Of a DNA stretch of 64,000 nucleotides, positions 1 through 39,175 are shown in pieces; the stretch's first letter is position 1, and the number at the start of each line of letters is the position of its first letter. The notes beneath the pieces were generated by a model. The model ran no database searches, was not told the DNA's origin, and was given only the letters and a program-made list of their open reading frames with translations. The position numbers and the translations under genes are program-made. Source of the stretch: Longimicrobiales bacterium (GTDB lineage: Bacteria > Gemmatimonadota > Gemmatimonadetes > Longimicrobiales > Gaopeijiaceae); assembly GCA_965226375.1 (NCBI GenBank), contig CBDDCX010000008.1, forward strand, positions 1,472,001 to 1,536,000. The letters run 5' to 3'.

Positions 1-2143
1 GTCTCGACGTCGGCGTCGGCCCCCTCCCATCCAGACAAAATGACCAGGGCGGTGGCCGGAAAGGCCACCTCGGCGGGGTAACGATCTCGACCGGCGTCGG
101 TCCACGTCTCAGCTCGCTCCAGATCTCCGAGATCGAGCCACACCTGGCCCAATGTGAAAATGATCTCTTTCTCCGCGTTGCTCAGGAACGGGTCGGCATC
201 CAGGGCACGCTGCGCCGCGAGGGAAGCCTGCGCGAAGTCACCACCCACACGCAGGAGATCCGCCAGAGCCACCCAAGCCAGGGCCCTCGTCGAGTCCGCC
301 TCGACGGCTGCCCTGAGGTCCTCCTCAGCGGCCTGGCGAAGCGTCCTCACCGCAGTCGAATCGGAAGCGATGGATCCCAGCCAGCTCAAGTCGTTCCGAA
401 GAACACCTCTGAGCTCCAAGGCGGTGGCATCCTGACCCTTGGTCTCGAGGGCCCTCTCGGCATGGGCAATCCCCAGCCGGAGTGCAGCCTCGTCACGACC
501 GCTCCTCGTCGCCGTCAGGCCAGCCACCGACCACCACACCCAACCCCTCTGGACCACCGGCTCAATCCAATCGGGATCGAACGACTCTGCCAAGGACAGA
601 ATCGAATCGGCCTGACTCAGGGTGCGCCGCGCCGACTCCGTATCACCCAAGCTCCAACGGAGCGTGTCGGCGGCGTCCATCAGTCGCGCTGCCCGTTGAA
701 AGGCCTCCCAGGCCTCGCCGCTTTCGGTAGCCGCGCGGACCTCCCTCAACTGAAGCCCACGACCCAGCTGTTGCCCCAGCAGGCGCGTCGCCTCTGCCAC
801 GATGTCGTCGCGAAGAGCGAGCAGGTCGTCACCCCCACGGATGATCCGCTCACTAAAGGACTGAGTCCCCGTCACACCGTCCACGAGTTGGACCGTGGCG
901 ACGAGTTGGTCCCCCGAGCGCTCGACGCTCCCCTCGACGAGACTGCCGGCTTCGAGGACCCGGGCCAAGCTGTCTATGGGAATCGGGTTGTCGCGGTACG
1001 GCTTGACCCCGTTACGCGAAACGACCCGGAGCGGCTGGATCTGCCCGAGGGCGTGGATGAGCGACTCCGTGAGTCCATCCGCCAGATAGCCCAGGTCCTG
1101 GTCGGGGCTGAGGTCGTCGAAGTAGAGCACGGCGATCTGCGTGGGATCCAGAGAGGACCCCATATCCGCGGTCGTAATCCAGGAACGCAGCGACACCGCC
1201 AGCAAAGAGACGAGGGCCGCTGCAACACCTACCCGCACCGTCCGGCTCCGTAGAGCATGCACCCGCCCATCATCCGACACCGCACGACCCTTCACCGGAG
1301 TCCCCCCGACCACCGTCCCCGCCAGCGAGTCGAGGAACGCCTTTCCTCGCGGCCAACGATCGAGCGGATCCTTCTCCATGAGCCCGCGCAGCGCATCTTC
1401 AACTAGGAGCGATACGCGCACGCCCCGTTTCGAGAGAGGCTCCGGGGTTCTGCTCAGGTGACTGAGCAGGACCGCTCTAGAGGTTTCACCCGTAAAGGGC
1501 GGAGATCCGGCGAGCATCTCATAAAACACGCATCCGAGAGAGTAGAGATCGCTCTTGCCGTCTATATCACGCTCACCGGCCGCCTGCTCCGGGCTCATAT
1601 ACGCGACGGAGCCCACCGTGAGCCCGGTCGACGTCATCCGCTCTTCATTCGCGTCACTGAGTGCTCTGGCGACCCCGAAGTCCGCAATGAGGGCATGCCC
1701 CTCCGAGAGCAAAATGTTGGCAGGCTTGATGTCACGATGCACGACACCCTGGCCGTGCGCGTAGTCGAGTCCCTCTGCCACGTCACGCACGAGCTGCAGG
1801 GCCTCATCCACCGGCAATCGGCCGTCACGATCCAGCCGGTCACGGAGCGACTCCCCCTCCACATAAGGCATCACGTAGTAGAGGAATCCGTCGGCCTCTC
1901 CAGAATCGTGGAGGGGAAGGACGTGCGGGTGGTTCAGGCGGGCGGCGATCCGGATTTCACGCAGGAAGCGCTCGATCCCACCGTCGCAGCCAACTCAGGA
2001 AGCAGCACCTTGAGCGCGACCCGACGATCGTGCTTGGTGTCCAGGGCCAGATATACCACCGCCATGCCACCCTGACCCAGCTCCCGCTCGAGCGTGTATC
2101 GCCCGGCGAGTGCATCCTTAAGGCGGTCAAAGTCCAGTAGCAT
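1..2143 (-). CDS. Ser/Thr protein kinase with TM segment, TolB-N-like domain and TPR-like C-terminus; frameshifted near 1977-1979; runs off the window edge
   Basis: The N-terminus reads [19 protein letters not shown]...VALKVL. After a frame change it continues [39 protein letters not shown], then [10 protein letters not shown]...[11 protein letters not shown]. One G is missing in GTGGG(G)ATC. Confidence 0.85.
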
Positions 2144-2217
2144 GTGTCTACCCGTGACGGATCGAGCCCCTCGCCGCCACATCGGAGCAGGTTGCCCTCG
2201 CTCGATGGTTCGGAAAG

Positions 2218-2254
2218 GAAAACACCCCAGCAACAGCTTTGCGATGACTGGGGT
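2218..2254 (-). terminator. Probable intrinsic terminator downstream of tRNA-Gln
   Basis: Minus-strand stem ACCCCAG...CTGGGGT followed by GTTTTCCTTT. Confidence 0.5.
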
Positions 2255-2262
2255 CCCGCGAG

Positions 2263-2333
2263 TTGGCCCGGATGGATTCGAACCATCACCGCCGGTGCCA
2301 AAGACCGGTGTCCTACCATTAGACGACGGGCCA
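2263..2333 (-). tRNA. tRNA-Gln(TTG), CCA end not encoded
   Basis: Cloverleaf: acceptor TGGCCCG/CGGGCCA, D-loop AATGGTAG, anticodon arm CCGGT-CTTTGGC-ACCGG, T-arm GATGG-TTCGAAT-CCATC. It lies at the usual position downstream of ispE. Confidence 0.97.
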
Positions 2334-2381
2334 CGAAGCTGTGCCTACCGGTCCAACCCTGACGCATGGATCCGGTGCACA

Positions 2382-2410
2382 ATCCTACCCGAGGGCACCA
2401 CTCGGTTCAA
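2382..2410 (-). promoter_or_regulatory. Sigma70-type promoter for tRNA-Gln
   Basis: Minus strand TTGAAC-17 bp-TAGGAT, about 50 bp upstream of the tRNA. Confidence 0.6.
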
Positions 2411-2429
2411 CCCGTAGCACCCCGGGCAT

Positions 2430-3317
2430 CTACGTCACAACAGAGGGCTTCGGCTGGAGTGCCAGCGTTTGGGTGACCACGAATTGGATGTCCGGCCAGG
2501 ACGACGACAGTGACTCGCTCGCCGACCTGGCAAGTACAGGGCCATCGAAGAGTGCGAAGAGCGCCGCACCGGTACCCGAAAGGCGGGCAGTGAGAGCGCC
2601 TTCATCCTCCATCGACCCCCGCAGCGCCCCTAGCTCTGGATGACGAGCAAAGACGGAGGACTCGAAGTCGTTCACGCAGACCTCGGCGAGTCGCTCCGAT
2701 TGCTCGAACGCTGCAAGATCGTGTGCCGACGGCGCGGCTCGCACATCGGGCTCAAGCTCCTGGAACGCATCGGCGGTAGACACCTTCAAGCGGGGAAGAG
2801 CCAACAGGACCGTCACGTCCTCGTCGGTCGGGAGGGGCAAGAGCTGCTCTCCTCTTCCCCACGCCAACGCCCGTCCGACGCCAGAAGCGAAGAACGGCAC
2901 ATCCGATCCCAGATCCGCCGCGCAACGTAGCAATTCCGACTCGGAGACCGGGTTGTCGAAAAGCATATTCAACGCCCGTAACGCGGCACCTGCATCCGAA
3001 GATCCACCGCCGAGCCCCGCCCCAGCCGGAATGTTCTTGGTCAACCGCATGTGCAGACCGACGTTCGCCGACGTGGCTTCGCGGAACCTCAGTACCGCCC
3101 GATACGCCAGATTCTCCTCAACGGGTCCGACATCGGCTCCGACCACGTCGAGTGACACCCCCTTCTCGGCACGCTCTACTCGTATCTCGTCACAAAAATC
3201 GACGGCGGCGAAGAGTGTCTCAATCTGATGATACCCCGAAATCTCCCGTGCGAGCACTCGCAGAAAGAGGTTGATCTTGGCCGGAGCACTTATATGCACC
3301 GCGTCGACTTCAGCCAC
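2430..3317 (-). CDS. ispE: 4-diphosphocytidyl-2-C-methyl-D-erythritol kinase
   Basis: APAKINLFL, KNIPAGAGLGGGSSDA, LGSDVPFF, LSGTG. The GTG start is inferred from overlap with the upstream stop. Confidence 0.95.
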   Translation of the reverse strand: MAEVDAVHISAPAKINLFLRVLAREISGYHQIETLFAAVDFCDEIRVERAEKGVSLDVVGADVGPVEENLAYRAVLRFREATSANVGLHMRLTKNIPAGAGLGGGSSDAGAALRALNMLFDNPVSESELLRCAADLGSDVPFFASGVGRALAWGRGEQLLPLPTDEDVTVLLALPRLKVSTADAFQELEPDVRAAPSAHDLAAFEQSERLAEVCVNDFESSVFARHPELGALRGSMEDEGALTARLSGTGAALFALFDGPVLARSASESLSSSWPDIQFVVTQTLALQPKPSVVT

Positions 3318-4398
3318 GATTGGTTTTCTCGGTGCCCTGGTCCGCCTGCCCAGCGGATGCCGACGACCCCGGCGAATCCATCCCAGGCTGCACGGCGGCC
3401 CTACTCCCGCGCATGTCGGCAACGGAGAAGCCCATGCGCCAGACGTAGTAGAATCCAATGATCGTGATCGGAAAGAAGCCTCCGAGGTGGTATCCGAAGG
3501 CGAAGGCCAGCGTCGCCGGAGCCGCAACGCCATAGACACCATTCAACGCCAGGTCCGCCCCGAGCTGGAAGGTGCCGAAGAAGCCGGGAGACGCCGGTAT
3601 GGCTACCGCGAAGCCCACGACGGCGGTGGTGAAGAGCGCTGCATCCAACCCCAGGTCGATCCCAAACGCCTTCATGCCCAACCAGAACGACCAACCGTGC
3701 CAGATCCAGAAGCCGTAACTCCAGAGGATCGCTTGGGTGAGGAGCCTCGGATGCCGCAGCACCTTCAGCGCATGAAGGAACGACTCGAGGGCCCCGACCA
3801 GTCGCTCACCCGTGGGTCCGGGCAGGCGTCCGCAGATCCTTTCGGCAAGGCGGACGAGCGGCTCAGGAAAAATCAGGAGTGCGACCAGACCCGCCAGGAA
3901 TACCGCAAGCATTACGAAGGTCGCCTTGAGAATCGTCCCGCCCGCCCCGGCCAGAAAATCCGCGGTACCTGGAAACGACGGCAGAGCCATGGGCACAAGG
4001 AACAGGGTCACGAGCACCAGCGAGTCCAGGAAGCGCTCGACCACCAGGCTGCCGAAGGCCCCCGAGACCGTGACCTTCTCGGCCCTGCTCAACGCGAACG
4101 GCCTAGCGATCTCTCCGAGTCTCGCGGGGAAGACGTTGTTGACGGCAAAGCCGATGCAGATAGCGGCGAACCGAGACCGAACCCGAGTGACGGGGGCCAC
4201 CGGCTGGAGCAGCACGTTCCAACGGAGCGCCCGGATGAAATAGCCGAACATGCCTACGACCATGGAAGCCAGGAAGTACCAGGGATTCGCCCGCGAAATC
4301 TGCGCGACGATTTCCCCGGGGTCCTCGCCCCGGAGTACCCACCAAATGAAGAAGGCGCTGACGCCTACTCCGAGCACCACCTTCCAGTTCAGCCTCAA
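3310..4398 (-). CDS. Lysylphosphatidylglycerol synthase TM-like (UPF0104) membrane protein / putative flippase
   Basis: Multi-pass hydrophobic protein with [30 protein letters not shown]. Confidence 0.8.
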
Positions 4399-5138
4399 GC
4401 GCGGTCCACTCCACGCCTGGCGGCCTTGATCAGCTCACCCATCTCGCGCACCGCCCGCTCCATACCGACCAGAACCGCACGAGAAATGATGGAGTGACCG
4501 ATGTTCAATTCCTCGATGAGTTCGATGGCCGCTACCGGCGTGACATTCTCGTACGTCAGCCCGTGTCCGGCGTGAACCGACAGGCCGAGACTCGACGCAA
4601 GTGTCGACGCGTCGGCCAGTCGGGCAAGTTGGACTTCACCTTCCGCAGTGGTCCAGGTGTTGGCGTACTCACCCGTGTGAAGCTCAACGGCGTCGACACC
4701 CAGATCGGCCGACGTCCGGACCACATCCTCGTCGGGATCGATGAACAGTGCCGTGCGTATGCCGGCTTCGCTCAGTCGCTCGAGGGCCGCCTCCGTCGAA
4801 GCACGAACCCCGTCGTCTCGCAACGCCAGCCCCCCCTCGGTCGTTACTTCCTCTCGCTTCTCCGGTACCAGAGTCGCCTGCATCGGCAGCAGCTCACAAG
4901 CGATGTCCAGGACATCCGTGGCCGTAGCGAGCTCGAGGTTGATCCCGGTGCGAGCAGTCTTCATCAGGAGCCGGACATCTCTCTCATTGACGTGACGACG
5001 ATCTTCACGCAGGTGCACCGTGATCCCGTGGGCGCCCGCCAACTCCACCAATACTGCGGCGCGAACCGGATCGGGCTCGTCCGTGCGCCGGGCTTCACGG
5101 ACGGTAGCGACATGGTCGATGTTGACGTAGAACCTCAT
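4395..5138 (-). CDS. pdxJ: Pyridoxine 5'-phosphate synthase
   Basis: [42 protein letters not shown]. Confidence 0.97.
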
Positions 5139-15458: not shown

Positions 15459-16568
15459 TCAGCCCTCGCCGTTCGCGATGGCTTCCTTGGGAGCCTCGAC
15501 TTCCGCGGCATCTTCGACTTGGACAGCTTCGTCCCCCATTCCCAATGCCACGCGGACCCGGGCGTCCACCTCCTCGAGCACATCCGGGTTTTCCAGGAGG
15601 AACTCCCTGGTGTTTTCCTTGCCCTGGCCGAGTCGCAGGTCTCCGTACGAGTACCACGACCCCGACTTTTCGATGATCCCCTCTTCGACGCCAATATCGA
15701 CGAGAAGACTCTCGTGGCTGATGCCCACGTCGTAGAGGATGTCGAACTCGGCCTGCCTGAAAGGTGGTGCGCACTTGTTCTTCACGACTTTCACGCGGGT
15801 CCGATTGCCAACGATATCCGTTCCGTCCTTGATGGCACCGATCCTCCGGATGTCCATGCGAAGGGATGCGTAGAACTTGAGGGCCCGACCCCCGGACGTC
15901 GTTTCGGGACTCCCGAACATCACACCAATCTTCTCACGGATCTGGTTGGTAAAGATCACGGAAGTCTGCGATCGGGCGACCGCGCCCGTCAGTTTACGCA
16001 ACGCCTGGCTCATCAGCCGAGCTTGCAAACCTACGTGTGTGTCCCCCATCTCACCTTCGATCTCAGCCCGCGGAACCAGAGCCGCCACCGAGTCAATCAC
16101 CACCACGTCGACGGCGTTGCTGCGGATCAGGACCTCGGCAATCTCGAGCGCCTGCTCACCCGTATCGGGCTGGGACACGAGCAGGTTGTCCACGTCCACT
16201 CCGAGCTTCTTGGAGTACCCCACATCCAGAGCGTGCTCGGCATCTACGAATGCGGCGATCCCTCCGGCAGCCTGGGCATTGGCGATCACGTGCAGACAGA
16301 GAGTGGTCTTGCCGCTCGACTCGGGACCGTAGATCTCGGTGATGCGCCCTCTCGGGATGCCACCGATCCCGATGGCGGCATCCAGATTGATGGCGCCGGT
16401 GGGGATCGAGTCGATCTCGCTACGCATCCCGTCACCACCCATCAGCATGATCGAGCCCTTCCCATAGGAACGCTCTATCTGGGTGATGGCCGTCGAAAGG
16501 GCCTTCTTCTTCTTGTCGCTCACTATATTGGTGACTTCTACGGTATTGGTGACTTCTACGGTCGACAT
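15459..16568 (-). CDS. recA: Recombinase RecA
   Basis: [48 protein letters not shown]. Confidence 0.99.
16526..16561. repeat. Perfect 18-bp tandem duplication in the recA 5' end
   Basis: TATTGGTGACTTCTACGG x2, encoding TVEVTN twice. Confidence 0.9.
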
Positions 16569-36468: not shown

Positions 36469-37494
36469 ATGGCCATGGCTGGTGATAACGACCAAGAGAA
36501 CGGCAACGGAGAGAACGGCGAAGACGAGCAGGACGCACGTGCACGTCGCATCCTGACCGACATCGCGCCGCGCTCCTGGGAGCACCCGGCGGATCGCGCA
36601 GCCCTGGCGGCCTTGCGTAAAATTCCGGTCTTCGACGACGTACTCCGCAAGCTCTTCGGGTTCTTCGGCGAGAAGCCGATTCGCCTGGCGTTCCTGGCGA
36701 ACTCGGTGCGGGTTTCCGAGCGCCAGTTCCCCAGGGTCCAGAGTCTGTACAAGGACGTTCTCCAGACCCTGGACGCACCTGAGGACTATCCTCTGTTCGT
36801 CTCCCAGACGCCCATCGTGAACGCCGGCGCCTACGGCATGGATGAGCCGTTCATCATCCTGAACTCCGGAACCGTCAAGCTCCTGGACGACGAACAGTTG
36901 TCGTACGTCATGGGCCACGAAGTGGGCCATATCATGAGCGACCACGTCCTGTACCGGACCATGACGGTGCTCCTGATTCAACTCGCCGGGATGGGCTTTC
37001 CCATCGTCGGCCTGGCTGCACGGGCGATTCTGGTTGCGCTCCTCGAGTGGTCCCGGAAGAGCGAGTTGTCGAGCGACCGGGCCGGTCTGCTCTCGGTGCA
37101 GAACCCCCAGGGGGTGATGCACACCATGCTCAAGATGGCAGGCGGCGGAGACGACGACGAGATGAACCTCGACGAGTTCATCATGCAGGCGGAGGAGTAC
37201 AGGGAGACGGGTGACGTGGCGGACCAGGTCTTCAAGGTGCTGAACCTGATGGGCCAAAGCCATCCCTTCTACGTGCTTCGTGTCGCGGAAATCCGTTCCT
37301 GGATCGAAGAGGGTGCATACGATCGAATCATCCGAGGCGAGTACCAGCACCGGGGTGATCCGGATCCGGCCTACAAGGATGATCTCAACGATGCGGCCTC
37401 GGCGTACGCGCAGGGCGCCAAAGATCTCTTCGGGCAGGTCACCGGCGCCGCAAAGCGCATGGCCGACGACATCATGGGAAGCGTCAAGCGGTAG
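36469..37494 (+). CDS. M48-family zinc metallopeptidase
   Basis: WEHPAD, VNAGAYG, GHEVGH, ELSSDRAG, SHP. Confidence 0.88.
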   Translation: MAMAGDNDQENGNGENGEDEQDARARRILTDIAPRSWEHPADRAALAALRKIPVFDDVLRKLFGFFGEKPIRLAFLANSVRVSERQFPRVQSLYKDVLQTLDAPEDYPLFVSQTPIVNAGAYGMDEPFIILNSGTVKLLDDEQLSYVMGHEVGHIMSDHVLYRTMTVLLIQLAGMGFPIVGLAARAILVALLEWSRKSELSSDRAGLLSVQNPQGVMHTMLKMAGGGDDDEMNLDEFIMQAEEYRETGDVADQVFKVLNLMGQSHPFYVLRVAEIRSWIEEGAYDRIIRGEYQHRGDPDPAYKDDLNDAASAYAQGAKDLFGQVTGAAKRMADDIMGSVKR

Positions 37495-37533: not shown

Positions 37534-37571
37534 AACGGGCAACCGGGCAACCGGTTGCCCGTTCTTTTTTT
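37534..37571 (+). terminator. Strong intrinsic terminator
   Basis: 13-bp stem AACGGGCAACCGG-GCAA-CCGGTTGCCCGTT followed by C and T7. Confidence 0.88.
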
Positions 37572-37580
37572 GGGGCTATT

Positions 37581-37879
37581 CTGGAGGCCTACTGAGGAAG
37601 TACAGTGGGTCGCGCGACCCGCGCCTTCGGCGCGGGTGCCCCGGGTCTTGCGAGGCTCAGACTAGGAACGACGACGAGTCGTAGCAGGGCTACGGCGAGG
37701 AGGAGAGACAACGTATGAGACCGCAACCCCCCTGTGCCCTCCGGGTTAGGGCGGCGAGGGCCCATCGCGGGTGTTGGCGCTCCTCCCCGATACTTAAGCA
37801 TCGCGTCGTCGCGCCGCCTACGCGCTGGACCCTCGGCGCTCCTAACGCGACCCGCTGTACTTCCTCAGCAGGCCTCTAG
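37581..37879. mobile_element. MITE-like palindromic non-coding element with 34-bp terminal inverted repeats
   Basis: Left end CTGGAGGCCTACTGAGGAAGTACAGTGGGTCGCG (37581-37614) and right end CGCGACCCGCTGTACTTCCTCAGCAGGCCTCTAG (37846-37879) are 31/34 complementary. The interior holds nested hairpins and no credible ORF. Confidence 0.7.
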
Positions 37880-37882
37880 GCC

Positions 37883-39175
37883 ATGCGCATTCTCATCGTT
37901 GGTAACGGCGGCCGGGAGCACACCCTGGCCTGGAAGCTCGACCGGGACGCAAGAGACGCCACCATCTTCGTCACCCAGCCCAACGGGGGAATGGTAGGCT
38001 CCGTCGAAAGCCTTGAGATCGCTCCGGGAGACGTTGAAGCTCTGGCGGGCTGGGCTCATGCTCAGCAGATCGACATGGTGGTCATCGGACCGGAGGCACC
38101 GCTGGCCTCGGGTCTCGCGGATCGCCTGCACCGTAGCGGCGTGCCCGTGTTCGGCCCTACCAAAGCCGCGGCCCGCATCGAGTCGAGCAAGGTCTACGCC
38201 AAGGAACTCATGCAGCGTGCGGGCGTCTCTACGGCCGGCTTCGCGGCGTTCAGTGACCCGGCCGAGGCCGCCAGCTACCTGAAGGACGGCGGCGCTCCCG
38301 TGGTCGTCAAAGCTTCCGGCCTGGCTGCCGGAAAAGGGGCCGTGGTCTGCGAGACCGTCGATGAAGCCCTCGCGACGGTAGATCGAATGATGACGGACCG
38401 CGTGTTCGGCGAAGCGGGCCGCGAGGTGGTCATCGAGGAGTTCATGTATGGAGAGGAGCTTTCGGTCTTCGCGTTGGCGGACGGTCGGGACGCCATGCTC
38501 ATGCTCCCGTCGCAGGATCACAAACGCGTCGGCGAGGGGGAAACGGGCCCCAACACAGGCGGCATGGGGGCATACGCCCCGGTAGCTCTGGCGACCCCCG
38601 AACTCTTGTCCGACGTGCTGGACCGTGTCATCCGGCCGACCCTGGCCGCCCTGGCAGAAGACGACTCCGAATTTCGGGGACTGCTCTACGCCGGCCTGAT
38701 GCTCACGGATCAGGGGCCCAGGGTCGTGGAGTTCAACTGCCGTTTCGGGGACCCCGAGACACAGGTGGTGCTGCCCTTGCTCGAGTCGTCCCTCCTGGCT
38801 CCCATGCTGGAGATCGCACGCGGAGGACACCTGGGCGGTGCCACGCTGGAGTGGAGCAGCAGAGCGGCTTTGACGACCGTCGTGGCCTCCGAGGGATATC
38901 CCGGCCAATACGAAAACGGCCGGCGAATCGACATCCCGGACAGCCTGTCTTCGGACCCCGACGTGCTGCTCTTCCACGCGGGCACCAGAATGGGCCCGGA
39001 CGGCCTCGAGACCTCGGGCGGACGCGTGATCGCGGTGACCGGCCTCGGCTCGACCCTGAGCCAAGCGGCGGCCAAGAGTCGCGCGGCGGCCGCCACCATC
39101 GACTTCGACGGCAAGCTTTTCCGGAGCGATATCGGGTGGAGAGAGTTCGCCCGATCCGAGCGGGAACGTCCCTAA
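37883..39175 (+). CDS. purD: Phosphoribosylamine--glycine ligase
   Basis: GNGGREH, IGPEAPL, GLAAGKG, QDHKR, GPNTGGMG, EFNCRFGDPE. Confidence 0.97.
   Translation: MRILIVGNGGREHTLAWKLDRDARDATIFVTQPNGGMVGSVESLEIAPGDVEALAGWAHAQQIDMVVIGPEAPLASGLADRLHRSGVPVFGPTKAAARIESSKVYAKELMQRAGVSTAGFAAFSDPAEAASYLKDGGAPVVVKASGLAAGKGAVVCETVDEALATVDRMMTDRVFGEAGREVVIEEFMYGEELSVFALADGRDAMLMLPSQDHKRVGEGETGPNTGGMGAYAPVALATPELLSDVLDRVIRPTLAALAEDDSEFRGLLYAGLMLTDQGPRVVEFNCRFGDPETQVVLPLLESSLLAPMLEIARGGHLGGATLEWSSRAALTTVVASEGYPGQYENGRRIDIPDSLSSDPDVLLFHAGTRMGPDGLETSGGRVIAVTGLGSTLSQAAAKSRAAAATIDFDGKLFRSDIGWREFARSERERP

Follow-up and report, generated by a model that had tools for sequence, protein, structure and literature searches.

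The window analysed here is a stretch of 64,000 nucleotides from the genome of a Longimicrobiales bacterium (G000; other G and L numbers denote comparison genomes and fetched loci). Between a gene for an M48 peptidase and purD, directly past a terminator-like hairpin, it contains a short element with inverted terminal repeats, and the features of this locus are as follows:

36469..37494, plus strand: upstream host gene, peptidase M48.
37534..37573, plus strand: host hairpin resembling an intrinsic terminator, upstream of and outside the element, and kept at the empty site of G002.
37582..37583, plus strand: left flanking dinucleotide TG, where many copies have TA, and possibly what is left of a target duplication.
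37584..37876, no strand assigned: whole two-arm MITE of 293 bp, bounded by copies in G000 and related genomes.
37584..37614, plus strand: left terminal inverted repeat of the IS5/IS1182 type, from comparison with IS ends.
37617..37637, minus strand: optional hairpin with a C(GAA)G triloop on that strand, present in 3 of the 6 G000 copies.
37642..37734, plus strand: domain A, a predicted plus-strand fold with a conserved C×C mismatch at 37647/37727.
37664..37710, plus strand: arm 1, comprising an AGG/AC loop, tandem G·A pairs with C-G spacers and a terminal hairpin.
37737..37745, minus strand: central short hairpin with a C(GGA)G triloop on that strand.
37745..37847, minus strand: domain B, a predicted minus-strand fold with G×G on the plus strand (C×C on the minus strand) at 37754/37836.
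37772..37819, minus strand: arm 2, the module of arm 1 on the minus strand.
37846..37876, minus strand: right terminal inverted repeat.
37877..37879, plus strand: right flank TAG, completing CTAG, with the start of purD 3 nt further.
37883..39175, plus strand: downstream host gene purD.

The original prediction extended the element over 37581..37879, with 34-nt terminal repeats (37581-37614 and 37846-37879) differing at 3 positions. The repeats are as described, and the mobile unit is best read, from the aligned copies, as the trimmed G37584..C37876, these two nucleotides being the ends that the copies conserve. Among the hairpins of the element, that at 37617-37637 is an optional insert, missing from half of the G000 copies. 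Folding of either strand, as RNA or as DNA, yields z scores of -7.6 to -9.6 that none of 200 shuffles matches, and no sigma-70-like promoter was found within the element. Re-reading of the two arms gave the sequences proposed earlier, and their folding on opposite strands is borne out by a covariance model, which places arm 1 on the plus strand (77 bits) and arm 2 on the minus strand (53 bits) and has no other significant match in the 64-kb window. A weak match resembling the arm loop, at 16100-16166 on the minus strand, is non-significant (12.7 bits, E 0.4). In agreement with the prediction of no transposase in the window, comparison with IS1182, IS5-type and IS630 transposases and with the open reading frames (ORFs) from two IS regions of G000 gave no match there.

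The element is repeated and dispersed. G000 contains 6 full copies together with many lone ends and collapsed relics, and BLAST matches the element in 20 of 41 genomes (G000 counted), representing all three families sampled, with carriers belonging mostly to Gemmatimonadota/Longimicrobiales. The purD site is element-free in 5/5 relatives examined, and several insertion sites occupied in G001 are empty in G000. The copy number, the empty orthologous sites and autonomous IS with the same ends support the earlier proposal of a non-autonomous element mobilised in trans. A role as cis-regulator of purD is rejected, as the element does not precede purD in any of the five relatives. Rfam, queried with the window region and 10 related loci, returned nothing near a gathering score. 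The plasmid and phage collections held no match to the element, and viral contigs gave none with a strict arm pattern; a loose loop pattern hit 120 stretches of viral contigs, 9 with some inverted repeat and none with tandem G·A, and these are attributed to chance. At the purD locus, contigs from four public runs, in which rare variants are dropped, showed no joint skipping the whole element, a result that for this reason carries no information. Read depth over arm 1 in these runs is 700-5000 compared with ~4-30 over most flanks, a value that sums all organisms and is therefore not a copy number. A decayed relic lies at G000:C8:843656-843724, between genes that we take to be hrcA and dnaJ, and G002 has a full copy at that site. 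Another two-arm relic has been interrupted at C8:1435702-1436100 by one of more than 30 near-identical copies in G000 of an IS element that is presumably IS3-like.

The insertion target is centred on TA/CTAG, as had been proposed, and CTAG occurs 2825 times against 5087 expected. By codon-model gene calls, the terminal TAG overlaps a host stop codon in 11 of the 62 two-arm elements and in 17 of the 54 one-arm elements (the latter are described below). The TA duplication that was proposed along with this target stands less well: among filled and empty pairs, taken from relatives just 70-89% identical and with the remaining pairs too diverged or non-syntenic, it is clean in 2, compatible in length in 2 and fails in 3. 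TA flanks both sides of 27 of 71 longer rows of the alignment and 32 of 43 shorter ones. A 4-bp duplication fits the IS themselves, unlike most element copies. One stop-codon site is occupied by a one-arm element in G000 (L120) and by a two-arm element in two related genomes (L131 and L164), and likewise, in L125 and L208, a CTAG or stop-codon site common to related genomes is occupied by elements that differ in family or subfamily. Where the insertion is shared, in L131 and L164, the rate of drift is similar in the element and in its flanks, and inserts have been gained or lost in place.

Transposases associated with the same terminal repeats, which the original prediction had suggested seeking, proved to be of the IS5/IS1182 type (DUF772), with one of them in the same genome as element copies and others, for four more end types, in genomes of the family. 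A DUF772 search matched 11 of 41 genomes, and protein searches across 251 family genomes gave matches in 8 and in 26. G023 carries a full IS1182 of 431 aa (373 bits; the NCBIfam cut-off is 270), whose end is identical over 21 consecutive bases to that of an element copy in G023. The DUF772 IS of L299 matches one element end type over 20 straight bases, and further end types match DUF772 IS in L303, L304, L307 and L312; nearly all of the matched IS are bordered by CTAG. The transposases of L299, L303, L304 and L307 score above the cut-off of the IS5 model NF033581, that of L303 additionally just at the IS1182 cut-off, whereas L308-L312 are IS1182-like, with L312 above the IS1182 cut-off. The window's own ends have drifted and agree with the L304 IS at 15 of 23 positions, and the commonest end variant of G000 does so at 18 of 19. 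The element is very likely a non-autonomous MITE with IS5/IS1182-type ends.

G000, which is 90% complete, yielded no gene of the DUF772, IS1182 or IS5 type, and its local copies may thus now be stranded. The DUF772 search likewise gave nothing in G002, G011 and G030, all of which carry copies, and G001 has 25 DUF772 matches, with the element's ends absent at the loci fetched. IS1182 and MITE copies at L093:52-66 and 1554-1568, L013 and L200 sit within palindromic sites that resemble their own ends, which suggests insertion beside earlier copies.

Of 30 IS loci, 29 give no match to the arm model, indicating that the interior of the element is not IS debris. A deletion derivative of IS1182/IS5 is accordingly rejected, since the interior does not derive from the parent IS and the single IS locus with an arm is a chimera. 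This chimera (L298:1316-2670) joins an IS5 transposase, along with its own left end, to one half of a one-arm element whose end is of the IS630 type, and is a possible intermediate of end swapping.

Judged from sequence, arms 1 and 2 are one module arranged in dyad, defined by the C×C mismatch, the AGG/AC loop and the tandem G·A pairs, and the two align in register. When 20 copies are aligned, changes on both sides are seen in 62 of the 83 predicted pairs, while the mismatches are retained, with C×C of domain A on the plus strand in 19/20 and G×G of domain B on the plus strand (C×C on the minus strand) also in 19/20. Among 51 arms, six of the G·A columns are without a standard pair in 48-51 and the neighbouring stems covary, with a covariation score that 0 of 500 shuffles reached. 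The extraction of these arms, whose rows are related, required GACGACGAG, TAGC/GCTA, GAGGA and AGG, so that several invariant columns were fixed by the patterns and independent evidence comes from the other columns alone. The covariation and conservation that the earlier note had asked to see modelled are thereby supported. A strict search for tandem-GA hairpins gave 15 arms in G000 compared with 1 and 2 in two Markov controls.

The arm also keeps its distance from the end. When ends were sought 40-110 nt upstream, the AGG lay 56-58 nt from the terminal G of its own strand in 43/43 rows shorter than 200 bp, and in 71 longer rows it lay at 56-59 nt in 56, at 75-81 nt in 11 and elsewhere in 4. 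The excess in the 75-81 nt rows equals the size of an optional hairpin, which would loop out. In the window, the AGG of arm 2 is 57 nt from the right end and that of arm 1 is 80 nt from the left end, or 57 without the 23-nt optional insert. Both arms thus keep ~57 nt, and each strand reads as end, ~57 nt and arm.

The ends, in turn, vary in a paired fashion. Scored against the majority of each genome, terminal changes altered on both sides and still paired outnumber the others 13:7 in G000 (6 copies), 12:1 in G001 (11 copies) and 14:1 in G011 (12 copies), and stand at 0 compared with 3 in both G030 (5 copies) and G023 (3 copies). Paired double changes of this kind can be produced by template switching, according to the accessible part of PMC8794818. 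On a tree of 69 interiors, in which at least 2 rows are mislabelled through a shifted end and bootstrap values have not settled, the end types require 21 changes where the minimum is 6, and five of them occur within a single supported clade of 11 rows.

The module is not confined to the two-arm element. In G000 the arm model detects 24 arms at E <1e-5, 12 of which belong to the six two-arm copies, and the genome contains a second family, of one-arm elements of ~160 bp. One subfamily has an end agreeing at 18 of 21 positions with that of a G000 IS630, and short one-arm rows, from several phyla, mostly have IS630-like ends. The IS630 in question (L297, G000:C3:25492-26558) is a single copy with its 3' end interrupted by another transposase-like ORF, and is a candidate mover of the one-arm family. 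A pattern scan with one genome per species gave at least 104 stretches, and among the 80 matches listed 14 lie outside Gemmatimonadota, in Woeseiaceae, relatives of Xanthomonadales, Hydrocarboniphaga, Noviherbaspirillum, Sandaracinaceae and a delta proteobacterium. Most of these stretches have recognisable CTAG-type ends, of several kinds, and five of the genomes outside Gemmatimonadota gave 12, 57, at least 150, 26 and 18 matches to the arm model, which was matched by 21 genomes in a 151-genome sample of the Gemmatimonadota phylum. The two-arm element is, on comparison of these sequences, a new form within an uncatalogued class of elements that crosses phyla.

Several relatives are of unusual build. 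In L281, L282, L284, L285 and L292, up to 5 one-arm units with IS5-like ends are arrayed head to tail, some containing an AT-rich insert, with spacers of 1-2 nt that are not TA, as circle junctions would give. L290:220-600 has the same IS5-type ends and one arm, but its second half differs and, on the opposite strand, abounds in GACGA/GAGGA. At G000:C8:518593-520329, two terminal repeats of the one-arm family surround a single long ORF of 525 codons, stop to stop, with a signal-like start, which may be a passenger gene that the MITE ends have captured.

Short transposase-free repeats with TA at their ends, such as ERIC/IRU, Correia/NEMIS and RUP, share with the present element, in the available portions of PMC2229807, PMC10969869 and PMC3184786, terminal repeats, an end-to-end fold, intergenic location, TA-centred sites and ends matching an IS, as RUP does with IS630-Spn1. 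The present element differs in being twice the size, in having a pair of mirror domains, each folding on a different strand, in its IS5/IS1182-type ends, and in a core common to elements of an unrelated end family, no such core being described in those portions. IS1182 and the IS5 family (NF033551, NF033581; DUF772) have the same terminal repeats and CTAG borders and a different interior.

ERIC (ERIC/IRU/RU-1, 127 bp) resembles the element in that one of its strands has an AGG loop together with tandem G·A, and its ends also, by eye, vary in paired fashion between copies. The E. coli rpsB-tsf repeat, agreeing by eye with the consensus in PMC2759123, gave 15 K-12 loci. The alignment comprised 13 of them, a copy identical to another and one further locus being omitted, and in these 13 copies the AGG and tandem-GA columns are invariant. 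An arm descriptor demanding at least 2 tandem G·A fits 5/13 ERIC copies compared with 0/3900 dinucleotide and 2/19500 rod-preserving shuffles; this descriptor was written with ERIC, a single family, already in view, and its 69 matches in G000 exceed the arms found by the model. The covariance model itself gave nothing significant on E. coli K-12 and the 15 ERIC loci (best 7.2 bits, E 9), and ERIC differs in having one arm, a longer tip and its AGG ~29 nt from the end, compared with 57. Because the descriptor fits while the model stays at background and the spacing differs, the element can be said to be built like ERIC, and membership in ERIC/IRU is not supported, the size differing as well (293 bp against ~127 bp).

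REPIN/RAYT systems are characterised by short REP hairpins and a tetranucleotide foot at each end. Like the present element, REPINs/BIMEs consist of two strand-specific inverted units with compensatory arm changes (accessible part of PMC3116915), but the ends of the element match DDE transposons and G000, 90% complete, has 0 matches to PF01797 (RAYT, Y1 HUH), and identity with REPIN/RAYT is not supported. A likeness by analogy of description, not of sequence, may be drawn to single-strand initiation signals such as the phage G4 origin and the RSF1010-type ssiA, which are strand-specific single-stranded DNA hairpins with sheared G·A mini-hairpin loops that are read by a priming protein (available part of PMC13037366). 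No description of the element or of a shared tandem-GA core was found in the literature, as represented by accessible portions of papers including PMC2229807, PMC2759123, PMC3184786, PMC10969869, PMC3116915 and PMC11602168; the portion available of PMC11602168 describes MITEs as almost wholly genus-specific at 95% identity.

Copies, empty sites, identity of ends with autonomous IS, covariation, strand-specific mismatches and fixed spacing were all observed, and the reading preferred here, to which we give an even chance of being correct, is that of a multi-copy, gene-less repeat moved in trans by IS5/IS1182-type transposases, in which the inverted pair of modules, predicted to fold as single-stranded DNA, aids copying from the exposed strand. 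The transposase would bind the ends of the element and insert it at TA/CTAG. In a transient single-strand state the ends would pair into a stem, and template switching would copy one end onto the other, such that the core could swap its ends and gain new transposases. The G·A arm, ~57 nt from the end, would dock a host factor; a host protein is the likely reader of the arm because the partner enzymes are unrelated to each other, and the best guess, a conjecture, would be that this protein acts in priming or in replication restart and so finishes or amplifies the copy. A single arm would then serve one strand, and two arms would serve both.

That the arm is a signal in single-stranded DNA acting in mobilisation is, by our estimate, about evenly balanced between right and wrong. 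Among distinct triloop hairpins outside arm 1, 17/24 are GNA on one strand compared with 238/1415 genome-wide, and the available part of PMC13037366 credits GNA mini-hairpins with much greater stability as DNA than as RNA and places them at single-strand priming sites of phages and plasmids. The main rival to this single-strand DNA reading is a role in mRNA, in which co-transcribed copies fold and the arm is kept because the RNase cleavage, read-through or protein contact that it sets makes insertions within operons tolerable, and which we consider rather unlikely. Two-arm elements between same-strand genes carry arm 1 on the sense strand in 29 compared with 5 cases of 62, on heuristic gene calls among related copies, with the remainder uncalled, convergent or divergent. 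Wobble pairs in domain A are G·T on the plus strand in 15 and A·C in 1, and the terminal stem also favours G·T on the plus strand (31 compared with 13), with domain B mixed (11 compared with 14); the sense bias and these pairs fit selection on a transcript and count against the DNA reading. Orientation-dependent effects on mRNA are, moreover, reported for ERIC (PMC2229807, available part). Against a role in RNA, one-arm elements, counted in the same manner, are without orientation bias (9 compared with 13 of 54), the fixed distance of 57 nt to the end is not needed for it, the triloops are of the GNA type, and arm 2 is conserved though antisense in most copies. The orientation bias of the two-arm elements is read here as a second, host-level filter.

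A different possibility, and a distinctly improbable one, is that what the arm truly serves is recognition by a separate mobiliser of single strands, either unknown or HUH/RAYT-like, with the IS-like ends as captured passengers. The persistence of the core while ends change, the inconsistent target duplication, the several carrier genomes without a cognate DUF772 IS, the head-to-tail arrays of one-arm relatives and the compensatory changes in REPIN arms would all accord with such a mobiliser, but the ends are letter-identical to those of autonomous IS, PF01797 is unmatched in G000, arms lie nearly always within terminal repeats or relics thereof, and no gene is tied to the arm apart from the one IS5 chimera. 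The notion of an ordinary MITE whose arm is inherited baggage, its covariation a by-product of template switching and gene conversion free of selection, is very unlikely and already strained, for although template switching is capable of paired double changes and the element of L131/L164 drifts near the flank rate with inserts gained and lost in place, template switching would erase the G·A and C×C mismatches, and these, like the spacing, are common to two diverged arms and to elements of other phyla.

Beyond the preferred reading of trans-mobilised copies with a strand-specific arm, a wider proposal can be made tentatively, with the balance leaning against it: bacterial mini-transposons of many phyla, ERIC included, might be one ancient lineage of parasites of transposons and not decayed IS. 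Such a lineage would consist of a portable module of single-stranded DNA, recognised by a replication protein of the host at a ruler-like distance from the end. Through arm-to-arm copying it would acquire the ends of DDE transposases unrelated to one another (IS630, IS5, IS1182), and the two-arm element would be its dimeric form, active from either strand.

What is new here is the two-arm dyad and its IS5/IS1182 partners. MITE interiors are commonly taken for remnants of IS, and the spread of ERIC-type repeats and the conservation of their cores have lacked an explanation since ~1990. The motif is now defined, the spacing is fixed, and G023 encodes both its MITE and an intact candidate transposase, which makes the question directly testable. 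Should the arm prove to be a host-factor site, it would constitute a new cis-requirement for non-autonomous transposition and would account for a cross-phylum class of repeats not found in Rfam. It appears likely that the module helps mini-transposons with unrelated ends to spread.
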